IMG/VR virus record: IMGVR_UViG_3300025308_000073 | Span: 1 to 61,468 of that record | Direction: 5' to 3' (one strand) | DNA length: 61,468 nucleotides | DNA from: a virus | Lineage: Duplodnaviria; Caudoviricetes | Translations under genes and position numbers: made by a program | Part shown: piece by piece, positions 34,299 to 61,057 of the stretch | How the letters are laid out: each line of letters opens with the position of its first letter | Position numbering within the stretch: the stretch's first letter is position 1 | The notes under the pieces: generated by a model | Database searches by the model: none | Told to the model about the DNA's origin: nothing | Seen by the model: only the letters and a program-made list of their open reading frames with translations

Positions 34299-34299
34299 C

Positions 34300-34414: not shown

Positions 34415-34550
34415 CGAAGCCTCAAAGACCGCAGCTTGGTCAAAGTGGAATCAAGGGAGGCGCTTTCCGGCGCGTGGCGCAAGCCACGGCGAAATCGGCC
34501 GGCTTCCGCCTTTCTGGTAGGGCGGCATGCCGTCTCGAAGGTCGGGCGAT

Positions 34551-43930: not shown

Positions 43931-45148
43931 ATGGAACTTGATTGGGGTGCATTTGGTGCAGCAGCGCGCGGTGAGAATGTTGGCGAATTCAAGCGCGGCC
44001 GGTCTGAGGAAGAGCGCAGGAAGAAGGAAGAGGAACGTCAAGATACAGAGCGCAAGCAGTACGAAGAGATCATTAAGTCTACGCATGGAGAATTTAAGGA
44101 GGGATTGAAAGCCGCCGGCGGCGCGGCTATGCCGATGCAGGATGCGTATGGAGCCGAGCCAGCTACGCCAGCGTCGGCGAACTCCATTGTCGCGCAAGGT
44201 ATTGTGCGCCCCGCTGCCGCGACAAAAGAGCCGACCTACCGCGAGCCGGACATCAATGACAAGTTTAACTACTCGGACAAGCTGTACGGAAGGCTCATAG
44301 AGGCCGGGCTGTTCGACAAGGCAAAGGAGGTCGGTCAATTCCGTTCCGGGCTGCTGGGCGAGAAGTTGCAGGCTGAGACAAAAGCACGGGAAGATGCTGT
44401 CCGTGGCGGCGTGGCCGCAATCAAATCAAGGAACCCTAAAGCAATTCTTGCTGCACTTCAAAGTGTTTCGCAGTTTGTCCCTGACGGCAATGATGTGACT
44501 GATGTGCAGATGTCAGGCGACGGCAAATATCAAATCACTTACGGCGACAACCCGCCGATAGCAATGGACGAGGGGCAGCTTACCTCATCGATTTTGGGTG
44601 CCGGTAAGGTGGAGACTATTCTGGACTACGATCACCGTCTGCAACAAACCGCATTTCAAAAAGCGCAGGAAGAGCGGCAAACGAAAAAGGATGAACGCGA
44701 CGCGACGCATCAAACCGACACGCTTGCCGAAACCAAGCGCAACCACATCGCCACCGAGGGTATCGCGCGAACCAAGGCGGTAGAAGGATCGGAAGCCACG
44801 ACCGCCGAGATTAAGAACGCGCGAGTATTTTTCCCGGAACTGTATGCAAAGAAACCGGCGGATGCTCTTTCTGCATTCAAGGATTTAACGAATGGGGAAA
44901 AGGACGCATCTGCCGTTCGCATGAAGCTGAACGCAATCTACTCTGACAGCATGAAGGGCGGATGGCCGAAAGAGGCTGGTAAATCTCAACAAGAGCGAGA
45001 TGTCTTCCTTGAAAAGCGGGTGAATTATTTTATGGGGAAAGCTGATGCGCAATCCTTTCCGCCACCAGAAAAACGCGAGATCGGCAAAGCATACCAAACC
45101 CCGAAAGGAATGATGATCTGGCGCGGCAATGGATGGAGCGCTAACTAA
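43931..45148 (+). CDS. putative internal virion/ejection protein
   Basis: Position; charged helical composition. Confidence 0.5.
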   Translation: MELDWGAFGAAARGENVGEFKRGRSEEERRKKEEERQDTERKQYEEIIKSTHGEFKEGLKAAGGAAMPMQDAYGAEPATPASANSIVAQGIVRPAAATKEPTYREPDINDKFNYSDKLYGRLIEAGLFDKAKEVGQFRSGLLGEKLQAETKAREDAVRGGVAAIKSRNPKAILAALQSVSQFVPDGNDVTDVQMSGDGKYQITYGDNPPIAMDEGQLTSSILGAGKVETILDYDHRLQQTAFQKAQEERQTKKDERDATHQTDTLAETKRNHIATEGIARTKAVEGSEATTAEIKNARVFFPELYAKKPADALSAFKDLTNGEKDASAVRMKLNAIYSDSMKGGWPKEAGKSQQERDVFLEKRVNYFMGKADAQSFPPPEKREIGKAYQTPKGMMIWRGNGWSAN

Positions 45149-48100
45149 TGGGTAAGCTGCTATCAGATGATGAGGTGTTTGGCACAGGCGCCGCACCGGC
45201 GCTAATGTCGGATGAGGAGGTGTTTGGCGGTGCTGTTGCAAACGAATCCGAACCACCCAAGCGCGGCTTCATAGGCAGCATGGCATCGCTTGCCAAAGAT
45301 GGCATTGATTCAGCAATCACTTCTGCGCGGCTTTCCGGCGATGTCGCAACCGGCAACTTTGATGAGAACGCGCCAAAGCTGATAGCTGGCTCATTGAACG
45401 TCGATCAATCTGGCAAGCCGCAAGAATTCAAGGAAGTTGCCGAATCATTCGCCCCGGCGCAGCAAGCCAAGGTGGCCGCAGGCGATTGGAGTGAACCGCT
45501 GGATAACGTGGGCGCTGTCGGGCAGATGTTATGGAACGTCGGCAAGCAGGCCGTCACCAACCCGAAAGGCTTGGCATACCTCACCGCTTCGCAGATCGCC
45601 AATATGGCTCCGTCCATTGCCGGAATGATGGCTGGCGCAAAGGGTGGTGCTGCCCTAGGCGCTGTTGCCGCACCGGTTACTGGGGGAGCCTCTATTCCGG
45701 TTGGCGCTCTGGTCGGCGGGTTGGCGGGTGGGTTTTCTGGTGAATGGCCGATGGAAGCCGGATCGGAATTTATCGGGATAATCGGCAAGGAATTGTCCAC
45801 GCGCAACCTTGCGCCAAACGAGCAGAATGTGGCGGCATTGCTGGCCGACAAGGGCTTCATGGAGACTGCGGTATCGCAGGCTAGAACCAAGGCGACCGTC
45901 ACATCTGGCATTGATTCTGCCATGACGTTGGGCGCTGGCCGTTTGGTTGGTGCGCCAGGGCGTGCCGCAGAGAGGGCTGCGCGCGTAGAGTTGGGCGCCG
46001 CCGCTACCGGCGCAGAGATAGCCAAGCGGGCTGGCGAGATCGTAGCGTCTCGCTCCATGCTGCAAAAGACCGGGAACGTCTCAAGGGCTGTTGGTCTTGA
46101 TGTCGCTGGCGGCGGACTATCGGAAGCTGGTGGGCAAGTGGCCGCTTATGGCGAGGCCGATTATGCCGACGTTGGCATGGAAATGCTGGGTGAGCTTGGT
46201 GGCGCAGGAATAGAATTGCCGAGTGCGGCATGGGCGGCTGGCAAGGGTATTGTCAGGCCAGCACCCACTCCTGACGCCAAGCAACCACCACCGCCAGCCC
46301 GACCCGGCTCGCTCACCAGCGCTGCGAACATCGCCGCACAGCAAGGCATCACGCCCACGCCCGTTCCCACGGAAGCAATCGACGCAGCCGAACTACTCGG
46401 AACACCAGACGATACCGCACCGCCACTAGCCGAGGCCGCTCAAGCTCCATTGGCGGAACCCGCTTCAATGAGCATTCTCGATGAAGTAACGAATGGCGCA
46501 ACTTCTCGACCTATCTCCACCACGCTGGATACTGGAAGCGCGACAGGCGCAAGCGATAACACCGCAGGAAGCGATACAAATGGCGTTCTTCAACATGATG
46601 CTGCAACGGGAGCCGGAAGGCTTGGAATGCCCGGAACCGCTGTGGAGGATAATGGAGCGGGTGGAGTTCAGTCGAATGGAAGTAACCAGCCGCGTCATGT
46701 AGGGCATCCGTCCGAAGTTGTGCTGCCGGACAACAGCGCATTGCCTGCGCAGTGGGAGGTGGTTGACGCAGATCAAGTCACGGCCACGCTCAAGGAAGGC
46801 AAGAACCAGCCGCGCGATCGGAGCCGTGCCGCAGCGAATGCCCAGGTGCAGGGTATCGCCAATATGCCGGACTATCGCCGCCTGGCCGATTCTCCCGTCA
46901 TGGACGTTGGCGCCCCGACACTTTCGCAAGATGGCGCAATCGTCGGCGGAAATGGCCGCTTTGAGGGCGTGAGCCGGGCATACGACCAAGGCACTGCCGC
47001 CGAGTACCGCGCGCACCTGGAGGCCGATGCAGCCGCAAAGGGGATCGACCCTGCGACATTCTCCGGCATGAACAAGCCGGTGCTGGTGCGCCGCATCACC
47101 CAGCCGTTTGACACCCGCGCGCTGGCCGTAGCATCCAATTCCGGCGGCAGCTTGCAGTATTCGGCGCTGGAACAAGCTAAGATCGACGGCGAGCGCATGA
47201 ATAGCCTGGGCGACATCGAGGTGAACGACACCGGCGACGTGGTGATGAGCGGCGGCAACATGGCGAACGTGCGCCGCGCGCTGACCGGCTACAACGCCGC
47301 CGAGATGGGCTCGATGACCGATAAGGACGGCTTGCTGTCGCAAGAGGGCATCCGGCGCATCAAGAACGCGCTGCTCTATAAAGCCTACGGCAACAGCTCC
47401 GTGCTGTCGCGCCTGGTGGAGTCTGCCGATCCAGACCTTAAATCAGTGATGGGCGCATTGGTGCGCTCCGCCGGATCGGTGGCCAGCGTGCGCGCCGACA
47501 TGAAGGATGGCAACAAGCCGGCAGATGCCGACATCGCCGAAGACCTGCTTTCAGGCGTCGAGCTTCTTAGCAAGATCAAGGCGCAAGGCTCGTCTGTCGA
47601 GCAGTACATGGCGCAAGATGCGATGTTCGGCAAGGAATACACCAAAGAAGCCGCGGCGATTACACGCTACCTGAGCGATAATATCCGCTCGCAGAAACGC
47701 ATGGCGGAATACATCAAGTCGTACTATGATGGTATCGCCAATGAGGATCATTTAACCGGCAGCATGTTCGAGACTGCGCCGGCATCGAAGAAAGAGAGGC
47801 TTGACCATGCCGCACGACAAGCAGCCGCCGGATCAGCAACAGAGCAAAGACCCACTGAGCGAGGAAGAGAAACAACAACTCCTGTCGTTCATGCACAAGA
47901 TCAACACCAATCCGAAAATGCGCAACGCGCTACTGTACGCGATGGAGCAGTCCAGCAAGATACCGGAGTAACCGGAGACGGCACCAAGGCCGCGCCCATC
48001 AAGGTCGAGCATCACGACCATATCAAGCAGGCCGAACAGCGCGTCAACACCAACCCGACAGACGCACAAAAGAAAAATGGCAATTACGCCATGGGGCATG

Positions 48101-51100
48101 TTGTCTGGAACGGCCTAGACATCACCATCGAGAACCCGCAGGGCAGCGAACGCTCCGGCACCGACGCGAACGGCAAGGCGTGGAGCGTCACCATGCCAGC
48201 TTCGTATGGATATTTGAAGCGTACCGAGGGAGCCGACGGCGATCACATCGACGTTTACTTGGGTAAACACCTGCAAAGCGACAAGGTATTCATCATCGAC
48301 CAGAAACACCTTGGAGGTGGCGAATTCGACGAGCATAAGGTCATGCTGGGCTTCCCGACATTGCGCGAGGCTGAGCGCATCTACAAGCGCGGATTCTCTG
48401 ATGGCAAGGGAGTGGAGAGGCTTGGCGCAATTACGCCAATATCTATTGGAGAGTTCAAGGAGTGGATCAAGACCGAAGATACAACCAAGCCGGTCGCTGA
48501 ATCGCTGCTGACCAGCTACACCCAAGCGGACATCGCAAAGCGCGAGCAGCAAGACACCACCGCCGAAGATCAAGCCGCCGTAGATCGCGCGGTCGAGCAT
48601 TCGCGCAACCAGCCGCTTTCGCTGTCCGCGCAAACCCAAGAGCGCTCCGAGGGCAAAACAGCGCAAGCTGGCATGTTCACGCCCGACGGGCGGGCGACGG
48701 TTGCAGCGGAACAATCTGCCAAAGCCAAGGCAGACGCCGACATTCAGGACGCGCTCAACGACTTGGGCGCAATCATGCGCGACCTGGTTGGCGTGCAGCG
48801 CATCATGCCGGAGGATCAACAAAAGCTATTGCCGGTGCTGGTGCGCCTGTTCGATGCCGCCTTCCGCAAGGGGTATTACGACATCCGCGAAGCCACCCGC
48901 TTTGTGCGCAACTTGCTGGCGGAAAGCGACGCAACTAAGGCTGCCGCCAAATTCCTGCCGGTATCACTGATGGATCAAGCGGCCAAGGAAGCGGCGGCCA
49001 AGATGCCGGAAGGGTTCTTCGAGAACCAGGGCTTGTTCAATCAGGCTGCGCCAAAGCAGGAAGCCGAGCATGTGCAGGATCGCATGACGAACGCGGACAA
49101 GAAGTCGGATAGCCGCAACTTCAAGCTGCCCGCGCTGCATGAGTTCGTGCCTGCCGATGTGCTGCAGCGCGCGCACTACCTGATTGTCAAGACTCCGAAG
49201 GCCAAAGAGCCCACCATCAGCGCCGAGGATCGTGCGGCGGCAGAAGTTGCGCTCAAGCCGCTGATCAAGAAGGCTGAGAAAGCCAAGCCGGAGTTCGACC
49301 GGATTGTGGTCGAGATCGCCAAGGATGTTGGCATCGGTCAGATGCTTGCGGATGTTAAGGGGGTAGGGCGAGCGGCGGAGAAGATGGTATTGGAAAAAGG
49401 TTACTCATACCGCGATTTGATTGGAGCGAGGCAATTTGATGCAAGTAAAATGCGCGACCTGCTGCGCGCTACAGTCGTGGTTGAATCCTATAGTGATGTT
49501 GATGTGGTTGTCGCCGCGATCAAGGCGCGCTTCGCAATCGAGATTGATAAAAAGAACGGCGAGGAACGCTACAAAGATAGGGTTGCCAACCCCACATCAG
49601 AAGGCTACCGCGATGTCATGCTGAATGTGGTATTGAAGGATGGAACGATTGCCGAGATTCAAATAAACATCCCCGCCATGTTGGCCGCGAAGGACTTAGG
49701 GCATGATCTTCATGAGCGCGCTAGGGTGCTTCGTAATGACGATCCGCTCAAGGCTGAATTGGATGATGCTCAGAAGGCGCTTTACGCCCCCGCCTATCAA
49801 GCCTCAACCAGGTCAACCCCGCACTCTTTGGAGAATTCGGCCTCGGTTTTGGGAAACAAGTATCCGCGTGTTCCAATCTCAGAGCCTTCAGAAACAAAGT
49901 CATCCTTGAATGGCGCAAACACCCTGCCATCTGGAACAACACAAAGCGGATCACCGCTTTCTGTCTCCCAAAACTTTGTTCCTTCTGGAAACTTGGCTCC
50001 TGCAATCGGGAATCTATCTGGTAATTTCATTTCTGGTTCCTCCAAGCACACTATAGCAAAAAACGCAAGCGAAGTCCATAATGCCGATACAGGCAGTGGC
50101 GAAAATACAACACAAGGAGCGCAACATGAGAACCGATCAGCTGGTGCTGGCAGCAATGAAGGAAAAAGCGCCACAACTGCTGGCGCAGCTCAAGGAAAGC
50201 CAAAGTCTGGATCAGTACATCCAGACTTTAGCGGAAGACATATCGTCCGAAATAACCACCCTGTCATTGCAGATAGCGATCAAGCACGGGTACAACGACC
50301 CGGACAAGACGCTGCCGGAGCGGGTGGCGATACACAACGGGGCGATACCGCTGGCGCGGGAGATCGTGCTGGCGGAGCTGCTGGACTTCCCGCGGGACAG
50401 CCCGGAACAGGAGCCGTCGGAGTCGTGGACGGGCGTGCCGGACGAGCTGTTCCCGCAGGACGGGACATCCCCGCCAAGACGGGTGGCAATTACCACTTCA
50501 CGGAAGCCGACCTAGACTACAAAGGCAGTTGGTTCACCAAGGCCAAACAGAACGTCGAGGCCGTCGAGCTAGTCAAGAAGCTGGACAAGGAAGGCCGCAA
50601 GGCTACCCGCGCAGAACAAGCCATTCTCGCCAAGTTCATCGGCTGGGGTGCATCTGAAATCCGCAACAACATCTTTGATACCAAGCTGGATGCGCAACTC
50701 GAAACGCTGGCCAAGTACGACGAGGCTATTGCCAGCCTGGGCAACAAGCCCTATCTGACCAACTCCAACTACCGGGAATATCATCCCGCCTTCCTGGTAT
50801 TGCAGGCCAAGAACCCCGCGCTGAGCTGGTACACGGCTGGCAACATCACCAAGGCGATGCTGGATGCGGCCAAGCCTGACAAGTCGGTGAGCGACTGGGG
50901 CAAGCTGCGCGACCGCCTCCAAGCTGTCATGTCGGATGAGGACTGGAAAACCGCCGAGCGCTCTACCCAGTACGCGCACTACACCGGCAAAGAGGTCGTC
51001 ACCGAGATATTGCGCGCCGCCGATCTACTTGGGTTCAAGGGTGGCTCTATGCTTGAACCTGGCGCCGGTATCGGGGTGTTCCCCGGCCTGATGAATTCTG

Positions 51101-54100
51101 CCATGGCAAACAACTCCATCTACACCGGCATCGAATTCGACGCGCTGACCGGCGCGATCCTGCAACACCTGCAACCGGACGAGCGCATCCTAGTCGAGTC
51201 GTTCATCGACTCCGCCTTGCCGGACAACTTCTACGATGTAGCCATCGGCAACCCACCGTTTTCTGATTCCAAGGTGCTGTCCGACCCACGCTACAAGAAG
51301 CACGCCTTCGCGCTGCATGACTACTTCTTCGCCAAGACCATGGATAAGGTCAAGCCGGGCGGGCTGGTGATGTTTGTGACCAGCCGCCACACCATGGACA
51401 AGCAGGGCGATAAGGCGCGGCAATACCTCGCCGAGCGCGCCGACCTGCTGGGCGCGATCCGCCTGCCGCAGACGGCATTCCAAAAGAACGCCGGAACAGA
51501 AGTGGTGACGGACATCCTGTTCCTGCGCAAGAAGGTGCCCGGCGAGACGTTTGAAGGCCACGGCTGGATGGGGTTGGAAAAGATCAAGATCAAGGGCGGC
51601 GATCACCTCATCAATGAGTATTTCGCCAAGCATCCAGAGATGGTGCTGGGAGAAGGCGCACTTGAAAGCGGACAGTTCGGCAAGCAATATACCGTCCTGC
51701 CCAACAAGGATGTGCCGACAACCGAATTGTTGGCGAAGGCGGTTGATAGATTGCCGCGTGATGTGTTCCGCCCGGCAGAAGAATCTGCCGCCAAGGCCGC
51801 GCAAGTGCGCCAGCTCGACTTCAACCCGAAGGCGAAGAAGGAAGGCAACTACTATGTGAGCGATGACGGGAAACTCATGCAGGTAGAGAACCGCCTGGGC
51901 GTGCCGGCAGACAAAGTGAAGGGGATAGATGCGCCTTTGGTCAGGAGCTTCGTGCGACTGCGCGACGCGCTGAACCAGACGCAGTACGACCAATTGAACG
52001 ATGGCGACTGGGAAGCGTCGCTTAAGGCGCTGCAAAAGGAATACAAGGCATTCGTCAGGGTGCATGGCAACCTGCTGCAAAATACCGTTGTTGAGCGCAA
52101 GGCGGTAGTCGAGGACGAAGATGGCAACGAGGTGGAGGATATTATTTCCTCGCGCCGTTTCAAGCTGATCCCCAAGTTGAACGACGATCCCGAATACTCC
52201 AAGGTGCTGGCGCTGGAGACAATCAATGACGACACCGGCGAGATCAAGGAAAGCGACTTCCTCACGAAGCGCACGCTGGATCAGCGCAAGGAATCCAAGA
52301 TCAGCACACCGCACGATGCTTTGCTGTCATCGCTGAACGACCTCGGGCGGGTGGATATTCCGCTGATCGCGCAGCGCATCGGCTTGAGCGAGATCGAGAC
52401 AATCAACTCGCTGGGGTCGGCAATCTATGAATCGCCCTCCAATGGCTGGCAAATGGCGGATGAATACCTGTCCGGCAACGTGAAGGCAAAGCTGAAAGAG
52501 GCAGAAGCTGCCGCGAAAACAGACCGCGGATTCGCGCGCAACGTCGAGGCGCTGATGAACGCCCAGCCGTCGCCGGTTTCGCCATCCGACATCACCACCT
52601 CGCTCGGCATGAACTGGATACCCGGCGAGGTGTACGCGCAGTTCCTGCACGAAAAGACCGGCGTTAAGGCCAATATTTCTTACAACGAGCACACCGGCAA
52701 CTGGAATGTGTCCGTCATATCTGGCAACAAGACCAACCGGGCAACGGTTGACTGGGGGACAGCGGATCGTGATGCGGCCGACATCATGGAAGCCGGGCTA
52801 ACTGGGCGGACAATCCGCATCACCGCCAAAGACCCGGACACGAAGGCGACAGTATTTCAGCCTGCCGCCACCGAGGCCGCCATCCAGAAACTGAAGGAGA
52901 TGCGCCAGGCGTTTGCCGATTGGATGTGGCAAGACAACGAGCGCACAGAGAAGCTGGTCACGCTCTACAACGACAAGTTCAACACCACGGTATCGCGCAA
53001 GTTCGACGGGCGCCACCTGACTTTGCCGGGCACGACGACAACGATCAGCGTGTTCGATCACGTCAAGCGCGGCGCATGGCGCATCATCCAGTCCGGCAAC
53101 ACCTATCTGGCGCACGCGGTCGGGAGCGGCAAGACATGGGAAATGGTGATCTCGGCCATGGAGCAAAAGCGCCTGGGCATGATCAGCAAGCCGATGATGG
53201 TGGTGCCGAACCACATGCTGCAACAGTTCGCGCAGGAATGGCTGCAACTGTACCCTTCCGCCAGGTTGATGGTGGCCGACGAGAAGCAATTCCACACCGA
53301 CAACCGCCGCCGCTTCATCGCGCGCGTGGGCATGTCAGACCTGGATGGCGTCATTATTACGCACTCCGCGTTCAAGCTGCTCGATCTTGATCCCGAGTTC
53401 AAGGACAAGATGATGAACGAGCAGCTGGACTATTACCGCGCCGCGCTGGAAGAGGTGCAGGATGCCGAAGGCGATACCGGCGACGCGAAAAAGAGCCGCA
53501 GCCCGAAAGTTCGCGACATCCAGAACCGCATTGAGAAGCTGGAAGAAAAACTCAAGTCGGCAATGTCAGGCGAAGGGAAGGACAAGAACGTGCGCTTCGA
53601 TGAGATGGGCGTGGATATGCTCTACGTTGACGAGGCGCACGAGTACCGCAAGCTGGAGTTTTCGACGGTGCGCCAGGTGAAGGGGATCAGCTCGACCGGT
53701 TCTGATCGCGCCTTTGACCTGTACATGAAAACGCGCTGGCTCGAAGAGAAGAAGCCGGGGCGCTCGCTGGTGCTGGCATCCGGCACACCGGTGACCAACA
53801 CGATGGCGGAGATGTATTCCGTGCAGCGCTTCATGCAACCCAAGGTGCTTGAAGAGAAGGGGCTGCAAACCTTCGACGCATGGGCTTCGATGTTCGGCGA
53901 AGAGAGCACCGAGATCGAGGCCGACGCCTCCGGCAAGTATGCGCCGGTGACGCGCTTCGCCAATATCGTGAACGTGCCTGAGCTGACGCAGATGTTCCGA
54001 GAATTTGCCGACGTGCTGACCTCCGAACACCTCGCCGAAATGCTGGGTGACAAGCGGCCAAGCGTGAAGTATGGCGCGCGCAAGCTGGTCATCACGCCGC

Positions 54101-57100
54101 AGGTTGACGACTATCTGGACTACAAGAAAGAACTCGCTGCCAGACTTGAGAAGTCGCGGAAGTGGAAGCCGTCGCGCGACGAGCCGAACAATCCAGACCC
54201 GGTAATCCGCATCATCGGCGATGGCCGCCTGGCCGCTATCGACATGCGCTTCATCGACCCGTCACTGCCATCTGATCCGGCCTCCAAGCTGAATGTGATG
54301 GCCGACGGCGTGATTAAATCCTACAAAAAAGGCGCGGACTATACGTTCAAGAACAAAGCGGGCAAGGAAGAAGAGACAAATGGCACTACGCAGATGGTGT
54401 TCTCCGATATCGGATTTGGCGCAGGAGTGGCGGCAAATCGCGGGTTTAATGCGCGCGCGTGGTTCGAGAAGCGCCTGCGCGACGCCGGAATACCGCCGAA
54501 TCAGGTTGTCTTTATGTCCGACCTGAAAAAATCCGACGCCAAGCAAAAGGCGTTCAAGGATATGAACTCCGGGCGTGTGCGCATTCTGGTGGGTAGCAGC
54601 AAGAACATGGGTACCGGCGTCAATGCGCAGCAACGCCTGAGAGCGCTGCATCACCTGGACACTCCGTGGTACCCGGCAGACCTGGAGCAGCGCGAGGGGC
54701 GCATCGTGCGCCAGGGCAACAAGAATCGAAATGTGCGGATATTCGCCTACTCCACCAAGGGGAGCTACGACACGAATATGTGGCAGTTGCTCGCGCGCAA
54801 GCAGCGTTTCATCGACCAGGCGCTATCCGGCGATTCGTCGGTGCGCAGGCTTGAGGATATATCCGAGACAAGCCAATTCCAGATGGCAACCGCCATGACC
54901 GCCGGGGACGAGCGCGCCATCCGGCTGGCCGGGTTGAAGTCGGATATTGACCGCTACCAGCGCCTGTACCGCTCGCATGAAGAGACGCGCATGCGGCTGG
55001 CGCAGGAGATTGTCAGGGCGAAGTATGCAATCGAAGTGGCGGAGCGCAAGCTGCCGGGCGCCGAGAAAATGGCCGGCAAGGTGCAAGACCTGTCCGGCGA
55101 CAAGTTCGCCGCCAAGGCTGGCAAGACGACATACTCCAAGCGCAAGGAATGGGGAGAAGCCTTGTTGGCCAAGCTCAAGGCCTATGCTGATACCGCCAAG
55201 GAAGGTGTCGAGGTTGTCGGCGAAGTGTCGGGCATGCCCATCGAGATCATCGGCAAGATCGACCGCAACAACGACGGCAAGGTGCTCGGCTATTACGTCC
55301 GGCTGGAAATGAAGCTGGGTGAGGATGGCGCAATCATTGGCCGCGATCCGAATGATGATGCGGTGGGATTGTCCATGCGCGCCACGAATGCGCTGGCCGG
55401 CGTGGAGCGCAAGCCGGAAGAGCTGCGCAAAACTGTCTTGGATGCAAAGGCGCAGATCAGCGCGAACGAAAGCCGCACCGGCGCAAAGTTTCAATTCGCT
55501 CAGGAAATGGCCGACAAGATCAAGGAAGCTAAAGAGCTTGAAGCGGAAATGGAGCGCGACGGAAAAGACCATTCCAACTCGGAGCTGGTGCAGAAAGCCA
55601 AGGCTTTCGCCGAGAAGTACCACAGCGAGATTGATCAGCGCCGCAAGTTCACCAACGAGCCGTACATCATGCACCCACAAGGCGTGGTGGACATCCTGCG
55701 CACAGTGCCGCACACCGAGGAAATGCTGGCCGCCGCCTGGGCGCATGACACGGTAGAGGATACCAAGGTAATGCTGGATGACGTGCGCGCGGAACTGGGC
55801 GACAAGGTTGCCGATCTGGTCGAGCAGCTCACCAAGCCATACGACATCAGCAAGATGACGCCGGATGCGCAGACAATCAAGCTGGCCGACATTACGCACA
55901 ACGCACTTGCCGCAAAGGATGCTCCAGCCGACTTTACGCGGCGCTACCTGCCAAAAAAGACTGCCGAGCTTGAGTTGCTGAAAGGCGGCAATCAGGAATT
56001 GTGGGGCAAGGCAAAGCAGGCCATCGAGGGCGATGATGTGCCGCTTGCAAGCGTAGCAAATAAAGCGCAGAGTGACAGCTATGAAGTACAACCAGACACC
56101 GCTCGCAACCTGCCTATCGACGGAGCCACGCTCGTTGAACTACGTCGTGCTGCGGCTGGTATCGAATCGGCAGAACGGGGGGTTACCTTCACCGTCAGCG
56201 CCGACGGCAAAGCCATCGTCACCGGCCCCGCTCGCGTCAAGGTTCCTGCTCGATTCCAGCGATTCGCCAACGAACACGGATTGACGCTGGTCGTTCAGCG
56301 CGCAAGCGCAGCTGGCGGATTCAGCAACGCCAACACAGCCATGCCGACAGCCAACCGCGAAGCTGGCGCGCTTTACTTTGGCGAGATGGGTACAAGTCAT
56401 ATTGACCGCACCGGAAGGACGCGGTTCAGCAAAGCCGAGCAGGCAAACCCAACGCCGCAAACCGTCGAATCCATCAAGCAAGCCACCGCCAAGCTGCGCG
56501 CAAGCTGGCATGGCTTCAAGCGTGTCATCATCGTGCAGTCGGTCAAGGAAATCCCTACCGAACTCTACTTGCGCGCGCTGCGCGCGGCCAAGCCGATAGA
56601 CCAGCATTCTGAGGGTATCTACGATCCCAAGACTTACACCGTCTATCTGGTGGCCGACAACATCGCATCGCCGGAGCGCGCTGTGTGGGTGGCAATCCAT
56701 GAAGTAGTAGGCCATGGCGGGATCCGGATGCTGGGTAGCCCGGTAGTGGATGCGCTGATCCATGCCGCCAAGAACGGCTTTGTGACCAAGCTCGCCCAAG
56801 CCATTGCAACGGATCGCGGCGAAATATTCGACGCTAGGACACACACCGACGAGGCCATCGCCGAGCTGGCGGCGGCCACCATCACCGGCAATGTTGATGC
56901 CATCCTTGAGCGCTACGGCGTGAAGGTGCCTATCGGGATGCGCAGCAACCTGCTGGGCATGATTAGGCGCGTGGTGGACGCGGTGCGCCAGTTCATTGGC
57001 CGCGTGACCGGCAAGCCGATCGAAGAGGTTAGCGACGGCGAGGTACTCGGGCTAATCCGGCAGATGAAGAATGCGGTCGAGGGTAAGGCGCAGGGATATG

Positions 57101-59829
57101 ACACGGCGGGCGTGTCACAAGGTGTTATGGCATCACGCGCGCCCCAAGAAAAACAACCAAGCATCCTGCGCACGGCTAAGGCCGCCAGCATGGAGTCTGA
57201 CGTTTCGCTGATCGACAAGGTGGTTTCCGCTCCGTTCAAGCTGGTCGGATGGAATCGCATCGTTGAGCCTGCGATAGATCTGCTGATGGAACGCGCCGGT
57301 GAGTTCGTGCCGGAGAAGGTTAAGGCCGGGCTGGTATCCGACTACGGATTGGGCGCCGATTATATCGACCGCAAGGCGGAAATGAAGGCGGCAGAAGCGG
57401 CGCTCAACCGTAAATCCGCCGGGCTATCCGAAATGCTGGCCGGGCTGACGCGGGCAGAAAGCCGCATCGCCTACCAGTGGATGCAAGTCAAACCGGACGC
57501 CGCTACCGAAAAGGCGCTGCTGGAGCAACTGCCCGCGGATAGCCGCGACACCCTGGCGACGCTCAAGAAACTGATCTCGGACATGGGTAAGGAGGCGGTA
57601 CGCCTCGGCCAGATGTCGCGCGAAGCCTATGAGCGCAACAATATGTCCTATCTGCACCGCACCTATGCCAAGCACGTTCTGGACAAAGAGGGCGTGATTG
57701 GCAAGATGCTGCGTGCCCGCGCCCTGCGTATCAAGGGCAACCAATACAAGGGGCGGGGGATATTCGACGAAGTGAAGATGGACGCCATCGGCGGGGATCG
57801 TGAATTCTGGCGCAAGCTGCAACAAGGCCGTGCCGATAATTCGCTGGTCGGTGAGAAGGTGATCCGCTTCGAGCGCCGCGATGCCAGCACCGAGGCCATG
57901 GACGCGCTGCCGGGAATGACCAGCAAACCCATGGGCAGGTTGCATGAGGTGATCTACTGGCCGGCCAATCAGGCAGTTCCTGCCAAGTTTGGGGATTGGG
58001 TAAATGCCGGCACATTCGAGGTGCGCGGCACCAAAGGCGACAAGCTGGTGGTGTGGCGCGACTTCACCCCGGAAGAGCGTGAGCGCATGGGAGAACTGGA
58101 CGAAGTGCGCTACGCCGTGGCGCAGACCTTGCAGATGATGACGCACGACATCGAGGTGGGGCGGTTCTTCGAGTGGACGGGCAAGACCTACGGCAAGGTG
58201 AAGCCGGATGGGCGCGAGGTGGTTGCCAGCGAATCCATGCTGCACAGCTACGGCAAGGATGAATGGGTGCAGGTTCCAGCGGCGCTTATTCCAGGGACGC
58301 AAACCAGGAAGTACGGCGCGCTGGCCGGGCTGTATATCCCCGGCGCGGTATGGAACGACATTCGCCAAACAGCCGGAGCGTGGATCGAGCCGTTCGGCCA
58401 CACCCACGAGAAGGTGCTGCAATTCTGGAAAAAGTCGAAAACCGCATGGAGTCCTGCGGTTCACGCGAACAACGTGATGGCGAACTTCGTGATTGCCGAC
58501 TGGCACGACCTGCGCGCGTCCGATCTGGCCGAAGCATTAAAGGTGTGGGCGCTCAACAAAAAGGACGGCTACCGCGAGATTTACCAGCGCTTCGAGGATT
58601 CCGGCGCGCTGGGCGGCATGTTCCTGTCGAACGAAGCCTTGCGCGACGAGATCGCCAAGCAGCTTGAGTCGATGAAGGCCGAGCTGACCGGGGAGCTGGA
58701 AGCCAAGGACGAAATGACGCGCATGGCCAAGGTGATGCACCTGGTCACGATGGCCGGCATGGTTCCAGTGAAGGGTGCCAAGGCGTACACCAGCAACATG
58801 GAGGATGCCTACCAGTTCGAGGATGCGATATTCCGCCTGGCCGCATTTACCAAGGCAATCCGCTACGGTAAGAGCGACATTGAGGCCGGCCGCATCGCGC
58901 GCCACTCATTCCTGAACTACGACATCAACGCGCCATGGATACAGGCCGCGCGCCACACTGCGCTGCCGTTTATCTCGTTCTTCTACCGTGCGCTTCCGAT
59001 GGCTGTGAACACTGCCAAGGCAAAGCCGTGGAAGATACTCAAGCTGCTGGCGTTCTGGCAGATGGTGAACGCCATCGGATATGCAATGTCTGGAGGCGAC
59101 GAGGACGACGAGCGCGATCTGTTGCCGAAGGAAAAGCAGGGCGGGGTGTGGGGTGTCGTGCCGAAGATGGTGCGGATGCCGTGGAATCATGACGACGACG
59201 CGCCTTATTTCCTGGACATTCGCCGCTGGGTTCCGGTCGGCGACGTGGCCGACATGGAAATGGGTTCCGGTATGCTGCCGCCGTGGGCAACACCTGGCGG
59301 CGTGATCCCGTTGCTGGCTGAAGTGCTGTTGATGAACAAGTCGATATTCACCGAGAAGGAGATTGTGCAGGATACCGACACCGCAGGAGAGGCGCTGGAA
59401 AAGCGCATGGATCATCTGTTCAAGGGATTCATGCCGAACGTGCCATTACCGAACCCGCTCAACCTGCAAACACCGATGGGCGAGATCAACCCGCTTGGCT
59501 TGAGCCAAGGCAGCGGACAGTCATACGCATGGTCTGGCATCGAGAGGTCAGCGCTTAAGCGAGAAGGGCAGATAGGCGAGGTGCGAAACACGACAGCGGC
59601 CATTATCAGCGCATTTGGAGTGAAGGCATCTGCCTACCCTGCCGGCAATATGCAGGCTGCCAAGCAGATCGAGATGCGCAAGAATGTTGAAGAAATCAAG
59701 GATGCTATCAAAAAAATTCAGCGTAATTATGGAAACCTTGAAGAACCAACTGAGGCTGAGAATGCAAGATTCGAGCGAGATATTGAGCGGCAGCGTGGGA
59801 AGCTGGAAGAGGCGCAGTTGGAGCGGTAG
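45148..59829 (+). CDS. 4893-aa polyvalent DarB-like protein (ParB-like, PPase-like, RelA/SpoT-like, N6-MTase, SNF2 helicase, HD, metallopeptidase)
   Basis: NQPRDRSR/GGNGR (~46740-47400); IENPQGSER/YGY...GADGDHIDV (~48080-48480); GYRDV/EIQI (~49350-49790); LEPGAGIG/GNPPF (~50960-51760); AHAVGSGKT/VDEAH/QREGRIVRQGN (~53050-54850); EPYIMHP/AHDTVEDT/KLAD (~55590-56020); HEVVGH (~56700). Confidence 0.9.
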   Translation: MGKLLSDDEVFGTGAAPALMSDEEVFGGAVANESEPPKRGFIGSMASLAKDGIDSAITSARLSGDVATGNFDENAPKLIAGSLNVDQSGKPQEFKEVAESFAPAQQAKVAAGDWSEPLDNVGAVGQMLWNVGKQAVTNPKGLAYLTASQIANMAPSIAGMMAGAKGGAALGAVAAPVTGGASIPVGALVGGLAGGFSGEWPMEAGSEFIGIIGKELSTRNLAPNEQNVAALLADKGFMETAVSQARTKATVTSGIDSAMTLGAGRLVGAPGRAAERAARVELGAAATGAEIAKRAGEIVASRSMLQKTGNVSRAVGLDVAGGGLSEAGGQVAAYGEADYADVGMEMLGELGGAGIELPSAAWAAGKGIVRPAPTPDAKQPPPPARPGSLTSAANIAAQQGITPTPVPTEAIDAAELLGTPDDTAPPLAEAAQAPLAEPASMSILDEVTNGATSRPISTTLDTGSATGASDNTAGSDTNGVLQHDAATGAGRLGMPGTAVEDNGAGGVQSNGSNQPRHVGHPSEVVLPDNSALPAQWEVVDADQVTATLKEGKNQPRDRSRAAANAQVQGIANMPDYRRLADSPVMDVGAPTLSQDGAIVGGNGRFEGVSRAYDQGTAAEYRAHLEADAAAKGIDPATFSGMNKPVLVRRITQPFDTRALAVASNSGGSLQYSALEQAKIDGERMNSLGDIEVNDTGDVVMSGGNMANVRRALTGYNAAEMGSMTDKDGLLSQEGIRRIKNALLYKAYGNSSVLSRLVESADPDLKSVMGALVRSAGSVASVRADMKDGNKPADADIAEDLLSGVELLSKIKAQGSSVEQYMAQDAMFGKEYTKEAAAITRYLSDNIRSQKRMAEYIKSYYDGIANEDHLTGSMFETAPASKKERLDHAARQAAAGSATEQRPTERGRETTTPVVHAQDQHQSENAQRATVRDGAVQQDTGVTGDGTKAAPIKVEHHDHIKQAEQRVNTNPTDAQKKNGNYAMGHVVWNGLDITIENPQGSERSGTDANGKAWSVTMPASYGYLKRTEGADGDHIDVYLGKHLQSDKVFIIDQKHLGGGEFDEHKVMLGFPTLREAERIYKRGFSDGKGVERLGAITPISIGEFKEWIKTEDTTKPVAESLLTSYTQADIAKREQQDTTAEDQAAVDRAVEHSRNQPLSLSAQTQERSEGKTAQAGMFTPDGRATVAAEQSAKAKADADIQDALNDLGAIMRDLVGVQRIMPEDQQKLLPVLVRLFDAAFRKGYYDIREATRFVRNLLAESDATKAAAKFLPVSLMDQAAKEAAAKMPEGFFENQGLFNQAAPKQEAEHVQDRMTNADKKSDSRNFKLPALHEFVPADVLQRAHYLIVKTPKAKEPTISAEDRAAAEVALKPLIKKAEKAKPEFDRIVVEIAKDVGIGQMLADVKGVGRAAEKMVLEKGYSYRDLIGARQFDASKMRDLLRATVVVESYSDVDVVVAAIKARFAIEIDKKNGEERYKDRVANPTSEGYRDVMLNVVLKDGTIAEIQINIPAMLAAKDLGHDLHERARVLRNDDPLKAELDDAQKALYAPAYQASTRSTPHSLENSASVLGNKYPRVPISEPSETKSSLNGANTLPSGTTQSGSPLSVSQNFVPSGNLAPAIGNLSGNFISGSSKHTIAKNASEVHNADTGSGENTTQGAQHENRSAGAGSNEGKSATTAGAAQGKPKSGSVHPDFSGRHIVRNNHPVIADSDQARVQRPGQDAAGAGGDTQRGDTAGAGDRAGGAAGLPAGQPGTGAVGVVDGRAGRAVPAGRDIPAKTGGNYHFTEADLDYKGSWFTKAKQNVEAVELVKKLDKEGRKATRAEQAILAKFIGWGASEIRNNIFDTKLDAQLETLAKYDEAIASLGNKPYLTNSNYREYHPAFLVLQAKNPALSWYTAGNITKAMLDAAKPDKSVSDWGKLRDRLQAVMSDEDWKTAERSTQYAHYTGKEVVTEILRAADLLGFKGGSMLEPGAGIGVFPGLMNSAMANNSIYTGIEFDALTGAILQHLQPDERILVESFIDSALPDNFYDVAIGNPPFSDSKVLSDPRYKKHAFALHDYFFAKTMDKVKPGGLVMFVTSRHTMDKQGDKARQYLAERADLLGAIRLPQTAFQKNAGTEVVTDILFLRKKVPGETFEGHGWMGLEKIKIKGGDHLINEYFAKHPEMVLGEGALESGQFGKQYTVLPNKDVPTTELLAKAVDRLPRDVFRPAEESAAKAAQVRQLDFNPKAKKEGNYYVSDDGKLMQVENRLGVPADKVKGIDAPLVRSFVRLRDALNQTQYDQLNDGDWEASLKALQKEYKAFVRVHGNLLQNTVVERKAVVEDEDGNEVEDIISSRRFKLIPKLNDDPEYSKVLALETINDDTGEIKESDFLTKRTLDQRKESKISTPHDALLSSLNDLGRVDIPLIAQRIGLSEIETINSLGSAIYESPSNGWQMADEYLSGNVKAKLKEAEAAAKTDRGFARNVEALMNAQPSPVSPSDITTSLGMNWIPGEVYAQFLHEKTGVKANISYNEHTGNWNVSVISGNKTNRATVDWGTADRDAADIMEAGLTGRTIRITAKDPDTKATVFQPAATEAAIQKLKEMRQAFADWMWQDNERTEKLVTLYNDKFNTTVSRKFDGRHLTLPGTTTTISVFDHVKRGAWRIIQSGNTYLAHAVGSGKTWEMVISAMEQKRLGMISKPMMVVPNHMLQQFAQEWLQLYPSARLMVADEKQFHTDNRRRFIARVGMSDLDGVIITHSAFKLLDLDPEFKDKMMNEQLDYYRAALEEVQDAEGDTGDAKKSRSPKVRDIQNRIEKLEEKLKSAMSGEGKDKNVRFDEMGVDMLYVDEAHEYRKLEFSTVRQVKGISSTGSDRAFDLYMKTRWLEEKKPGRSLVLASGTPVTNTMAEMYSVQRFMQPKVLEEKGLQTFDAWASMFGEESTEIEADASGKYAPVTRFANIVNVPELTQMFREFADVLTSEHLAEMLGDKRPSVKYGARKLVITPQVDDYLDYKKELAARLEKSRKWKPSRDEPNNPDPVIRIIGDGRLAAIDMRFIDPSLPSDPASKLNVMADGVIKSYKKGADYTFKNKAGKEEETNGTTQMVFSDIGFGAGVAANRGFNARAWFEKRLRDAGIPPNQVVFMSDLKKSDAKQKAFKDMNSGRVRILVGSSKNMGTGVNAQQRLRALHHLDTPWYPADLEQREGRIVRQGNKNRNVRIFAYSTKGSYDTNMWQLLARKQRFIDQALSGDSSVRRLEDISETSQFQMATAMTAGDERAIRLAGLKSDIDRYQRLYRSHEETRMRLAQEIVRAKYAIEVAERKLPGAEKMAGKVQDLSGDKFAAKAGKTTYSKRKEWGEALLAKLKAYADTAKEGVEVVGEVSGMPIEIIGKIDRNNDGKVLGYYVRLEMKLGEDGAIIGRDPNDDAVGLSMRATNALAGVERKPEELRKTVLDAKAQISANESRTGAKFQFAQEMADKIKEAKELEAEMERDGKDHSNSELVQKAKAFAEKYHSEIDQRRKFTNEPYIMHPQGVVDILRTVPHTEEMLAAAWAHDTVEDTKVMLDDVRAELGDKVADLVEQLTKPYDISKMTPDAQTIKLADITHNALAAKDAPADFTRRYLPKKTAELELLKGGNQELWGKAKQAIEGDDVPLASVANKAQSDSYEVQPDTARNLPIDGATLVELRRAAAGIESAERGVTFTVSADGKAIVTGPARVKVPARFQRFANEHGLTLVVQRASAAGGFSNANTAMPTANREAGALYFGEMGTSHIDRTGRTRFSKAEQANPTPQTVESIKQATAKLRASWHGFKRVIIVQSVKEIPTELYLRALRAAKPIDQHSEGIYDPKTYTVYLVADNIASPERAVWVAIHEVVGHGGIRMLGSPVVDALIHAAKNGFVTKLAQAIATDRGEIFDARTHTDEAIAELAAATITGNVDAILERYGVKVPIGMRSNLLGMIRRVVDAVRQFIGRVTGKPIEEVSDGEVLGLIRQMKNAVEGKAQGYDTAGVSQGVMASRAPQEKQPSILRTAKAASMESDVSLIDKVVSAPFKLVGWNRIVEPAIDLLMERAGEFVPEKVKAGLVSDYGLGADYIDRKAEMKAAEAALNRKSAGLSEMLAGLTRAESRIAYQWMQVKPDAATEKALLEQLPADSRDTLATLKKLISDMGKEAVRLGQMSREAYERNNMSYLHRTYAKHVLDKEGVIGKMLRARALRIKGNQYKGRGIFDEVKMDAIGGDREFWRKLQQGRADNSLVGEKVIRFERRDASTEAMDALPGMTSKPMGRLHEVIYWPANQAVPAKFGDWVNAGTFEVRGTKGDKLVVWRDFTPEERERMGELDEVRYAVAQTLQMMTHDIEVGRFFEWTGKTYGKVKPDGREVVASESMLHSYGKDEWVQVPAALIPGTQTRKYGALAGLYIPGAVWNDIRQTAGAWIEPFGHTHEKVLQFWKKSKTAWSPAVHANNVMANFVIADWHDLRASDLAEALKVWALNKKDGYREIYQRFEDSGALGGMFLSNEALRDEIAKQLESMKAELTGELEAKDEMTRMAKVMHLVTMAGMVPVKGAKAYTSNMEDAYQFEDAIFRLAAFTKAIRYGKSDIEAGRIARHSFLNYDINAPWIQAARHTALPFISFFYRALPMAVNTAKAKPWKILKLLAFWQMVNAIGYAMSGGDEDDERDLLPKEKQGGVWGVVPKMVRMPWNHDDDAPYFLDIRRWVPVGDVADMEMGSGMLPPWATPGGVIPLLAEVLLMNKSIFTEKEIVQDTDTAGEALEKRMDHLFKGFMPNVPLPNPLNLQTPMGEINPLGLSQGSGQSYAWSGIERSALKREGQIGEVRNTTAAIISAFGVKASAYPAGNMQAAKQIEMRKNVEEIKDAIKKIQRNYGNLEEPTEAENARFERDIERQRGKLEEAQLER
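46493..46702 (+). CDS. possible nested +1-frame gene (69 aa) in a linker of the giant protein
   Basis: Main frame is low-complexity here and the alternative frame is protein-like; RBS weak. Confidence 0.35.
   Translation: MAQLLDLSPPRWILEARQAQAITPQEAIQMAFFNMMLQREPEGLECPEPLWRIMERVEFSRMEVTSRVM
47807..47971 (+). CDS. possible nested +1-frame gene (54 aa)
   Basis: RBS GAGAGG; MPHDKQPPDQQQSKDPLSEEEKQQLLSFMHKINTNPKMRNALLYAMEQSSKIPE. Confidence 0.4.
   Translation: MPHDKQPPDQQQSKDPLSEEEKQQLLSFMHKINTNPKMRNALLYAMEQSSKIPE
49797..50030 (-). CDS. nested antisense gene (77 aa), candidate antitoxin/immunity protein
   Basis: Minus-strand promoter, RBS GGAGG, then MKLPDRFPIAGAKFPEGTKFWETESGDPLCVVPDGRVF...; the main frame is Ser-rich filler here. 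Confidence 0.6.
   Translation of the reverse strand: MKLPDRFPIAGAKFPEGTKFWETESGDPLCVVPDGRVFAPFKDDFVSEGSEIGTRGYLFPKTEAEFSKECGVDLVEA
50050..50082. promoter_or_regulatory. divergent sigma70-like promoters inside the giant ORF
   Basis: Minus strand TGGACT-17-TATAGT with extended TG; plus strand TAGCAA-17-CATAAT (weaker). Confidence 0.55.
50126..50515 (+). CDS. nested +1-frame gene (129 aa), TnpV-like helical protein
   Basis: RBS AAGGAG; MRTDQLVLAAMKEKAPQLLAQLKESQSLDQYI...AREIVLAELL. Confidence 0.6.
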   Translation: MRTDQLVLAAMKEKAPQLLAQLKESQSLDQYIQTLAEDISSEITTLSLQIAIKHGYNDPDKTLPERVAIHNGAIPLAREIVLAELLDFPRDSPEQEPSESWTGVPDELFPQDGTSPPRRVAITTSRKPT

Positions 59830-60810
59830 TTAATCCAGCCGCCCGGCCATATCCGCAGCGCTCTCGTTGTAATAGACCATGAGCTGCTTTAGATCGCGGT
59901 GGCCGACCATGCGCGCCAGCGCCAGCACGTCCAACTTGCGCGCCAGCCGCGTGATCGCGGCATGCCTCAAGTCGTGGAACGTCAGTCCATCGATCTCTGC
60001 CATCTTCTTCGCCTTACGGAAGTTCGAGTCGATCTGCGCGGTGGACAAATTAAACACCGCGCTTTCGGTTCCCATCTGCCGCAGCAGCCGGATCGCCTCT
60101 GTGGATATCGGGACATCGCGCTCCGCTGCATCAGTCTTGCCGCTCTCAACGTGCAGGTAGCGCTTTTGAATGTGAACATTCTTCCAGTCGAGCGCGGCAA
60201 TTTCCCCGGCGCGCATGGCTGTTTCAATAGCGAACAGCATGGCCGCCCCCACCCTGGCGCCCACCGACTTCGGCATCACATTTGCGTTATATCCAAGCGC
60301 CACGGATAGCAGCTCAATTTCATTCGGCGTTGCGATCCTGTCCCTTGCCTTGCCGTGTGCCGGCACCTTTACGCCGCGCATCGGGTGTTCTTTCAGCCAG
60401 TGCCATTCATTGATGGCAGTGGAGCAGGCAGACGACAGCAGCACCCATTCCCGGCGCACACTGGCCGAAGTCACAGATTCAAGCCGCCTATCCCGCCACG
60501 ATGCGAAATCGGGCTGCTTGAGTTCGGCTAGTTTCACCTTGGCTATCTTGTCCCGCATGATAAGGTTGATGCGCAGGCGCTCCCAGCGCTCTCCCTTCTT
60601 GGTTGGCGATACCTCGTCGCGGTATTTTTCAAGAAGCTGCCCAAAGGTTTTGTTGGGAATGTCACCATGTTTTCCTGCTATGATGTCGGCCTCTACTTGT
60701 GCTGCCCAGGCCTGCGCCGCCGTCTTGGTCGGGTGTGTTTCGGATTGAACAACGCCTAACTTGCGCACGATTGCACGCCACGAGTCGCCGCGTTTTTGGA
60801 AGGTGGCCAT
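59830..60810 (-). CDS. int: prophage tyrosine integrase
   Basis: TAMRAGEI, FHDLRH, GHRD..QLMVYY; adjacent to att and the tRNA. Confidence 0.93.
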   Translation of the reverse strand: MATFQKRGDSWRAIVRKLGVVQSETHPTKTAAQAWAAQVEADIIAGKHGDIPNKTFGQLLEKYRDEVSPTKKGERWERLRINLIMRDKIAKVKLAELKQPDFASWRDRRLESVTSASVRREWVLLSSACSTAINEWHWLKEHPMRGVKVPAHGKARDRIATPNEIELLSVALGYNANVMPKSVGARVGAAMLFAIETAMRAGEIAALDWKNVHIQKRYLHVESGKTDAAERDVPISTEAIRLLRQMGTESAVFNLSTAQIDSNFRKAKKMAEIDGLTFHDLRHAAITRLARKLDVLALARMVGHRDLKQLMVYYNESAADMAGRLD

Positions 60811-60818
60811 TTTGAGTT

Positions 60819-60902
60819 TGGTACAGTTGTGGTGCAAAAATGGTACACCAAAAACCGGCAGTAAGCGAGAAAGCCCGTTAAAACGTGGTTTGATGTGGTA
60901 CA
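60819..60902. repeat. putative arm-type sites, right arm (TGGTRCA)
   Basis: At 60819, 60830 and 60841 (11-bp period) and at 60896. Confidence 0.55.
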
Positions 60903-60972
60903 AAAAAGCCAACAAAAAAGCCACTTCAATCGCTTGAAATGGCTTGATTACGGGGTTTTTAGACTGTTGTTG

Positions 60973-60993
60973 TGGTGCCCAGAAGAGGACTCG
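60973..60993. repeat. att core, right copy
   Basis: Identical to 1908..1928; forms the tRNA 3' end. Confidence 0.95.
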
Positions 60994-61057
60994 AACCTCC
61001 ACACCTTGCGGCACACGGACCTGAACCGTGCGCGTCTACCAATTCCGCCATCTGGGC
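60973..61057 (-). tRNA. tRNA-Leu(CAG)
   Basis: GCCCAGATGGCGGAATTGGTAGACGCGCACGGTTCAGGTCCGTGTGCCGCAAGGTGTGGAGGTTCGAGTCCTCTTCTGGGCACCA; 85 nt, long variable arm, anticodon CAG. Confidence 0.97.

Follow-up and report, generated by a model that had tools for sequence, protein, structure and literature searches.

Where can the immunity gene of a toxin reside when the toxin is a domain buried inside one very long open reading frame (ORF)? The question is raised by a 61,468-nucleotide (nt) stretch of tailed-phage DNA (Duplodnaviria; Caudoviricetes), positions 1 to 61,468 of the IMG/VR record IMGVR_UViG_3300025308_000073, which is referred to below in its full length as the window. In this window a giant ORF carries a RelA/SpoT-like synthetase domain, and where this domain ends a 77-amino-acid (aa) ORF is found on the opposite strand. 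We propose that the small ORF is an immunity or antitoxin gene cognate to the Tas1-like domain, that it is embedded antisense in the linker after this domain and that its product inhibits the domain, a reading to which we assign a probability of roughly 0.6. An antisense gene with its own promoter, tied to the RelA/SpoT domain as a candidate neutraliser, had been put forward in an earlier sequence-only reading of the window, and the comparative and modelling results described here lend it computational support. The elements on which the argument turns are the following:

45148..59829, plus strand: giant ORF, DarB-like polyvalent virion protein, 4893 aa (ORF list, translation, Pfam)
49117..49806, plus strand: Tas1-like RelA/SpoT (toxSAS-like) synthetase domain, giant-protein residues ~1324-1553 (Pfam RelA_SpoT)
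~49429-49704, plus strand: Pfam-matched core of the synthetase domain
49797..50030, minus strand: embedded antisense gene, 77 aa, beginning MKLPDRFP, from ATG 50030 to the stop codon at 49799-49797; candidate cognate inhibitor of the synthetase domain
50039..50043, minus strand: Shine-Dalgarno (SD) sequence GGAGG, 8 nt before ATG 50030 (from the sequence; kept in relatives)
50050..50058, minus strand: extended -10 element TGC-TATAGT, with TATAGT at 50055-50050 and TG at 50058-50057 (from the sequence and a promoter scan)
50078-50073, minus strand: weaker -35-like TGGACT, separated from TATAGT by a 17-nt spacer (from the sequence)

The ORF and its signals all lie where the sequence-only reading had placed them, and its statement that the ORF ends together with the synthetase domain is borne out, the stop codon at 49797 falling in the C-terminal tail of the domain. 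The giant frame stays open throughout the span of the 77-aa ORF and reads as a stretch rich in Ser, Pro, Asn and Gly. In the window alone, neither the openness of the small ORF nor the promoter match exceeds chance: the 130-codon open stretch containing the ORF ranks 6th by length among 117 such stretches along this minus frame over the giant gene, and a promoter scan of 49500-50700 found 1 site, compared to 0.7 +/- 0.8 in shuffled sequences. The geometry of the two frames is such that the third codon positions of the small ORF coincide with those of the giant frame, and each frame therefore inherits part of the other's constraint. A terminator-like hairpin at 49960-49943 was considered and set aside, as it is not visibly kept in two relatives (alignment read by eye, unfolded).

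The case for a genuine gene comes from the relatives of the locus. Viral contigs searched with the synthetase core yielded 29 loci, and an iterated profile of the small protein, run over the six-frame open stretches of these loci and the window, matched only minus-strand ORFs in the same place, namely in the window and in 13 of the 29. Among the remaining 16, seven contain a divergent minus-strand ORF of 68-85 aa in the same position, two contain a co-directional downstream ORF and for seven nothing was noted. In the two co-directional cases (L038:2381-2680 and L042:2399-2686) an ORF of 95-99 aa overlaps the stop codon after a C-terminal synthetase domain, which is the classical position of an immunity gene; its sequence is unrelated to the antisense family. 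The reverse search, with six small proteins, fetched 20 loci, 12 of them on new contigs. Every one of these 20 carries the synthetase core on the opposite strand, at a distance from the stop codon of the small ORF of 66 nt in 17 loci, 69 nt in two and 99 nt in one, and in all 20 the small ORF is contained entirely in an ORF of the opposite strand that runs open through the whole locus.

Frames and signals were compared in a set of 24 distinct viral sequences. The frame of the small ORF is free of stop codons in 24/24, with a mean pairwise identity of 0.372 and a BLOSUM62 score of 1.73 per residue, and the giant frame is likewise stop-free in 24/24, with an identity of 0.341 and a score of 1.34 per residue. 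The remaining four frames are broken in 12-22 of the 24 and reach only 0.21-0.23 in identity and 0.32-0.51 per residue in score. The small frame is thus the best conserved of the six, as it also is in a 12-sequence version of the comparison, and it has hydrophobic or aromatic invariant positions. The motif TGnTAnnnT occurs at most 45 nt upstream in 19 of the 24 members; in 16 its end lies 19 nt ahead of the start codon. Its background frequency is 48 in 4242 windows (1.1%). Furthermore, an SD core is found 4-18 nt upstream in 23/24, and an ATG, GTG or TTG start stands in the same position in 24/24. Judged at the level of sequence, through conservation, signals, linkage and dual coding, the 77-aa ORF is a genuine gene, and the small ORF and the giant frame are to be regarded as dual-coding over this stretch. 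The sequence-only reading had described the main frame here as filler that nevertheless stays open; its Ser/Pro/Asn-rich character and its openness hold, whereas mere filler is an incomplete description of a frame that is open in all 24 sequences.

In public data, a profile built from 12 sequences detected, at E<=1e-3 among 5.8 billion, 92 proteins with lengths of 64-127 aa (best E value 6.8e-23); none of them has a Pfam domain and most are encoded on short contigs, which fits a gene that is reported by gene callers only when the giant ORF is truncated. Other searches gave little. Single-sequence searches with the 77-aa protein (a word-index search and tblastn against phages) found no match, and a DNA search with the 1.6-kb region hit, among phages, only the methylase part in Ralstonia phage Gerry and, among plasmids, nothing. 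A profile scan of a genome collection yielded no family member, and a metagenome scan found only two contigs of the type of L2, a close relative introduced below. A 3-sequence profile matched 14 proteins at E<=0.001 among 1.84 billion representatives, one of which is the copy of the second close relative, L4 (P0005). Two sets of candidates were discarded: eight of the nine other matches to this profile that were scanned are RCC1-repeat proteins with 2-7 matching stretches each, which we read as a repeat or composition artefact, and four exact 21-mer matches in Firmicutes genomes have no other sequence in common with the window.

The same arrangement is present on two viral contigs that are close relatives of the window, L2 (L002) and L4 (L004), and in both of them the giant frame and the small ORF (79 and 70 aa) are open. 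L2 has 91-95% DNA identity to the window on both flanks of a diverged block between 49487 and 49966, which takes in the synthetase domain's C-terminal half together with most of the small ORF. On its sequence, this mosaic block, with half of the synthetase and the small ORF replaced together, resembles the swap of a toxin-immunity cassette. One DNA sequencing run contains joints from 49104 to 50008 and from 49104 to 50011 (side 30, likeness threshold 80); they hint that the synthetase and the body of the small ORF form a swappable cassette and are too weak to be used. In L4 the giant gene is ~72-76% identical to that of the window, and the longest exact match between the two over the whole giant gene is an island at the beginning of the antisense gene, the runner-up being 29 nt long:

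50015..50063: 49-nt island identical in the window and L4, comprising the extended -10 element, the SD sequence, the ATG and the first five codons of the antisense gene

When the codons of the giant frame are shuffled, the small frame is open with a probability of 0.18, 0.10 and 0.11 in the three sequences, and the giant frame with 0.53, 0.65 and 0.26 when those of the small frame are shuffled. With the giant gene left out of its training, a sliding codon model shows a better fit of another frame at only four places in 14.7 kb. The stretch 49783-50052 is one of these, and the best model there has exactly the frame relation of the small ORF; another, at 56128-56307, is marginal, with a deficit of 0.4 nats.

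The partner domain is recognised by the Pfam model RelA_SpoT with 30 bits against a curated cut-off of 27 (E 6.7e-7), and the model matches all three aligned members. Its closest solved relative is Tas1 (6ox6, E 0.0021), with whose motifs those of the domain line up. The residues D114, R117, G163, Y164, D166, E180, I181 and Q182 are common to at least 95% of 24 synthetase cores; the roles that we give to the conserved residues are presumed assignments. Predictions of the complex between the synthetase domain and the small protein scored 0.87, 0.00 and 0.75 in three runs, with a median of 0.75, compared to 0.07 for the best of three controls. The pass mark for such predictions is reached by 116/157 solved complexes and 2/215 mismatched pairs. 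At least 13% of the contacts agree between the runs and the pLDDT (predicted local distance difference test) of the partner is at least 45, its fold being uncertain in one run. The predicted interface includes residues 22-27 and 51-60 of the small protein and R113, D114, Y164, D166 and E180 of the synthetase, which are invariant in the three close sequences and, all but R113, present in at least 95% of the 24 cores. Over the whole interface, synthetase residues are invariant at 13 of 33 positions, compared to 124 of 230 domain-wide (Fisher p = 0.089). From these models we infer that the small protein binds the synthetase. The mean identity among the small proteins is lower than the 0.523 of the synthetase core, which makes the small protein the faster-evolving member of the pair. 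Conservation of the ORF, co-occurrence in homologues and structure prediction of the pair had all been named as checks by the sequence-only reading: the ORF, its signals and its position are kept, the synthetase core accompanies the small gene wherever the latter was fetched, and the complex is predicted with a median score well above the best control.

The position-fixed linkage, the deep conservation and the controlled complex prediction are three independent computational lines that support a functional tie of the small gene to the synthetase. The following mechanism would account for the arrangement. Because the toxin domain is internal to one long ORF, its immunity gene would be overprinted on the opposite strand of the linker that follows. 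A sigma-70-type extended -10 promoter of a constitutive type would drive the antisense gene independently of the late operon, and the small protein would be translated from a canonical SD-ATG start. It would then bind over the catalytic site of the synthetase and hold the domain inactive, which would protect virion-producing cells as well as lysogens into which kin phages eject the protein. In the giant frame, the same DNA would be rendered as a flexible low-complexity spacer rich in Ser, Pro, Gly and Asn. The scheme presumes that the domain is toxic and that it is neutralised, and likewise presumes when the gene is expressed in lysogens or producer cells.

Three other explanations compete with an immunity function. 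The small gene could be real and linked to the synthetase without encoding an inhibitor, acting instead as a folding or packaging chaperone, as an adaptor or activator, or by regulating either the giant gene or a second embedded gene, described below, that lies in the +1 frame of the giant ORF and is transcribed away from the small gene. The linkage in 20 of 20 loci and the predicted binding suit a chaperone or adaptor equally well, a divergent control region is common to the small and +1-frame genes in 18 of 23 loci, and the HD hydrolase domain of the giant protein could already handle the synthetase product. Against this stand the predicted interface, which lies on the catalytic residues R113, D114, Y164, D166 and E180 as is described for Tis1 and IapK, and the faster evolution of the small gene compared to its partner, which is typical of cognate binders. 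Moreover, the +1-frame gene exists without the small gene in Bcep22-like and Ralstonia phages, and the pair is thus not obligate. We consider a non-inhibitory role unlikely, while giving it more weight than either of the other two explanations.

In the second of these, what functions is an antisense RNA controlling the giant mRNA, selection acts on the promoter, and the ORF is open as a by-product of constraint on the giant frame. The promoter is indeed the best conserved part, a transcript from it would be complementary to the giant mRNA, codon usage is equivocal, and the coinciding third positions let the giant-frame constraint leak into the small frame. However, an RNA gene does not explain an SD sequence in 23/24 members and a start codon in the same position in 24/24, nor a small frame that is more conserved than the giant frame and has hydrophobic and aromatic invariant positions. 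The chance of openness is ~0.1-0.2 per sequence given the giant codons, yet all 24 are open; in addition, the complex model predicts a specific interface, and the terminator-like hairpin is not visibly kept. This explanation is accordingly held to be improbable. Least credible, to a degree that makes it nearly negligible, is the absence of any function, in which case the ORF would be a shadow and the promoter-like site a chance occurrence, both in a fast-evolving linker. The unexceptional ORF length and promoter count within the window, and the first single-sequence searches, which returned no homologue, are what could be expected of such an ORF, but all the comparative results (the 49-nt island, the profile, the linkage and the frames) strongly disfavour it, and the related loci, at a mean pairwise identity of 0.37, are not near-identical copies.

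Several observations weigh against the proposed immunity function. With regard to the complex, one of the three runs scored 0.00, and the input alignments had only 3 rows each. The AlphaFold2 (AF2) model of the small protein alone has a pLDDT of 62.1, so that its own fold is uncertain, and this low-confidence model has no fold match in the PDB at E<=0.001 (Foldseek); in the ESM Atlas its best score is 0.83 (recognition 1830), below the useful range. Two profiles searched against all PDB chains gave no match to Tis1 at E<=10, and the small protein has no sequence likeness to any solved chain, which at the same time makes it unlikely that the complex pass is the recall of a homologous complex. 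With regard to the gene, 16 of the 29 core-fetched loci are without a family match, and the small frame leads only modestly in conservation, a lead that is partly confounded by the coinciding third positions. Codon usage ties the small and giant frames in the window and in L4 and favours the giant frame by 17 nats in L2. Contigs from RNA libraries (metatranscriptomes) cover pieces of 48500-51200 and carry no strand, start or level information, a part without cover having no meaning; furthermore, convergent late transcription may limit antisense expression while the giant gene is on. With regard to the function, the toxicity of the domain is assumed from its likeness to Tas1, at an E value of only 0.0021, and the giant protein has a small-alarmone-hydrolase (SAH)-like domain of its own that could neutralise the synthetase product in cis and may be the real neutraliser:

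55597..55866, plus strand: HD_4, SAH/MESH1-like domain of the giant protein, residues 3484-3573 (Pfam HD_4, E 4.5e-14)

The closest solved relatives of this domain are Lmo0812, Rel hydrolase domains and MESH1.

The proposed pair can be compared with several known systems. Tis1 is reported to neutralise Tas1 by binding to it and blocking its pyrophosphate-acceptor site (PMC11782079). The pair described here is similar in that the closest solved relative of the synthetase is Tas1 and in that the small protein is modelled over the catalytic site. It differs in that the putative toxin, instead of being an effector of a type VI secretion system (T6SS), is one of the internal domains of a polyprotein of the phage virion, and in that the gene is embedded and antisense instead of a downstream cistron, with no sequence likeness to Tis1. 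A second parallel is provided by the MuF-Apk2 toxins of temperate phages, which are reported to be counteracted by two immunity proteins, the binder IapK and the hydrolase Aph1, IapK being a fast-evolving cognate binder that blocks the Apk2 substrate site and evolves faster than the hydrolase immunity (PMC12226406). The two systems share a virion-associated protein with an alarmone-synthetase toxin domain, a putative one in the giant protein, combined here with a fast-evolving small protein and the SAH-like HD domain. In Apk2, as described there, the toxin is C-terminal and both immunity genes are downstream on the same strand, whereas in the window the putative toxin has an internal position, the proposed binder is encoded by a gene overprinted on the other strand, and the giant polypeptide itself includes the hydrolase-like domain. 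The HD domain parallels the second, hydrolase immunity of Apk2 and FaRel. The IapK family gave no match in the profile searches against PDB chains, and no IapK sequence was compared directly.

The toxic small alarmone synthetase (toxSAS) modules FaRel, FaRel2, PhRel and CapRel are reported to pair a RelA/SpoT-homologue toxin with a neutraliser that is either a small protein encoded next to it or a domain fused to it; they are bicistronic or fused and co-directional, in contrast to the antisense gene inside the toxin-bearing ORF described here. The domain scans detected neither a pseudo-Zn-finger nor a Tis1-like domain. The antisense gene also falls outside the arrangement of a co-directional, adjacent and non-overlapping cistron by which toxin-immunity pairs are recognised. 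The giant protein itself is of the kind of the polyvalent proteins, including the DarB-like proteins of Bcep22-like phages, in being a giant multidomain virion protein, and RelA/SpoT, InPase and DdrB-ParB are given as phage-type domains in the work on polyvalent proteins (Iyer et al. 2017; PMC5512222). The main text of that paper describes no embedded genes in polyvalent ORFs and does not use the terms antisense, overlapping, frameshift, linker or opposite strand. A complete gene inside the coding sequence of another is known from Rz1, embedded in Rz, as noted in a study on phage JC1 (PMC9144972), and the +1-frame gene of the window is of this type. Rz1 lies on the same strand as Rz and both products act together in lysis, whereas the product of the antisense gene is predicted to inhibit a domain of the product of its host ORF. 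A literature search found no description of such embedded genes; the founding paper on Bcep22 was outside its scope.

The antisense gene is not the only ORF embedded in the giant gene. The divergent gene already mentioned sits just before the methylase domain, and a further candidate is found between the ParB-like and InPase domains:

50126..50515, plus strand: second embedded gene, 129 aa, in the +1 frame relative to the giant ORF, pointing away from the antisense gene and with AAGGAG at 50114-50119 ahead of it
47807-47971, plus strand: possible third embedded ORF, 54 aa, +1 frame, with GAGAGG 8 nt before its ATG

For the 129-aa ORF, the codon model favours the +1 frame over the giant frame by 17.6 nats in the window, L2 and L4, and this codon likelihood, together with the G+C content at third codon positions (GC3), shows that the +1 frame rather than the giant frame is native here. 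The AF2 model of the protein is folded over residues 1-87, with three helices and a block-mean pLDDT of 86-94 over residues 31-80, and ends in a disordered tail; it has no Foldseek match at E<=0.001. The top Pfam match is TnpV (PF14198), with 13.3 bits in the window and 19.6 in L4 against a cut-off of 27, and this likeness is a lead only. Of 23 family loci, 18 contain the gene. In 41 phage records overall, among them those of Ralstonia phage Gerry and Burkholderia phage Bcep22, syntenic +1-frame ORFs that have an SD sequence lie beneath the annotated DarB-like coding sequence, and GC3 of the annotated frame falls there from ~0.87 to 0.40-0.46; coordinates listed for the arrangement besides those of the window are L011:5655-5978 and about 701-1024 of L016. 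As neither the synthetase domain nor the small antisense gene is found nearby in the syntenic phage records, the +1-frame gene is regarded as an independent, older embedded gene. No slippery site for a -1 frameshift joining its ORF to the methylase was seen in an inspection by eye. Between 50385 and 50470 the window and L2 have 63 extra bases compared to L4, with the motif TTCCCGC-GGAC repeated at both ends, and these bases make the giant linker longer, as well as the +1-frame ORF's tail. For the 54-aa ORF, the codon model prefers the +1 frame by up to 10.7 nats; apart from the window, this ORF was seen only in L2, a nearly identical contig, and is without independent support.

The giant protein that carries these ORFs combines ddrB-ParB, InPase, RelA/SpoT-like, Eco57I-type methylase, SNF2 helicase with Helicase_C, and HD_4 hydrolase domains (Pfam). 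Its closest annotated relative is a 'DarB-like antirestriction' protein of Ralstonia phage Gerry, and in the related phage JC1 the DarB-like protein is reported to be virion-associated according to mass spectrometry (PMC9144972). The window represents a temperate podovirus-like phage with portal, capsid and internal virion proteins and two reverse transcriptases (PHROG scans), its temperate nature being deduced from two integrases and a repressor-like gene. The two tyrosine-integrase genes lie one near each end of the window, at 797-1861 and 59830-61014, both on the minus strand. PHROG scans also revealed two sets of diversity-generating-retroelement genes, each with a reverse transcriptase and an Avd-like gene, at 4368-6487 (minus strand) and 33888-35573 (plus strand), and sulfatase-modifying-factor-type matches in several ORFs, including the C-terminal part of a tail-fibre-like gene; further coordinates listed with the ORFs of these two types are 6543-7226, 11489-12397 and 31645-33870. 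Matches to the large terminase subunit are divided between two overlapping plus-strand ORFs, 22706-23500 and 23490-24281, which could reflect a frameshift, an intervening element or two genes.

To our knowledge, conserved antisense protein-coding genes are rare in bacteria and phages, and those proposed are often doubted. The antisense gene described here has unusually clean comparative support and a testable function. A toxin-immunity pair of this sort is known in kind, while the gene arrangement is unprecedented, and it would show how a toxin domain buried in a polyprotein can have an immunity gene at its side. The gene also defines an unannotated protein family, members of which are missed by gene callers wherever the giant ORF is complete, and the models make its product a candidate for a new inhibitor of (p)ppApp/(p)ppGpp-type synthetases. 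For giant genes annotated as 'DarB-like', those of cultured Burkholderia and Ralstonia phages among them, the findings imply that more linker genes are concealed within them. In a wider and more tentative reading, to which we would give slightly less than even odds, the genes of giant polyvalent virion proteins use whole genes in other frames or on the other strand as linkers between domains, with at least two and possibly three embedded in the present one; the antisense gene would then represent the first family of protein-coding antisense immunity genes overprinted on the ORF of their own toxin, and its promoter would let lysogens resist the toxin ejected by kin phages.

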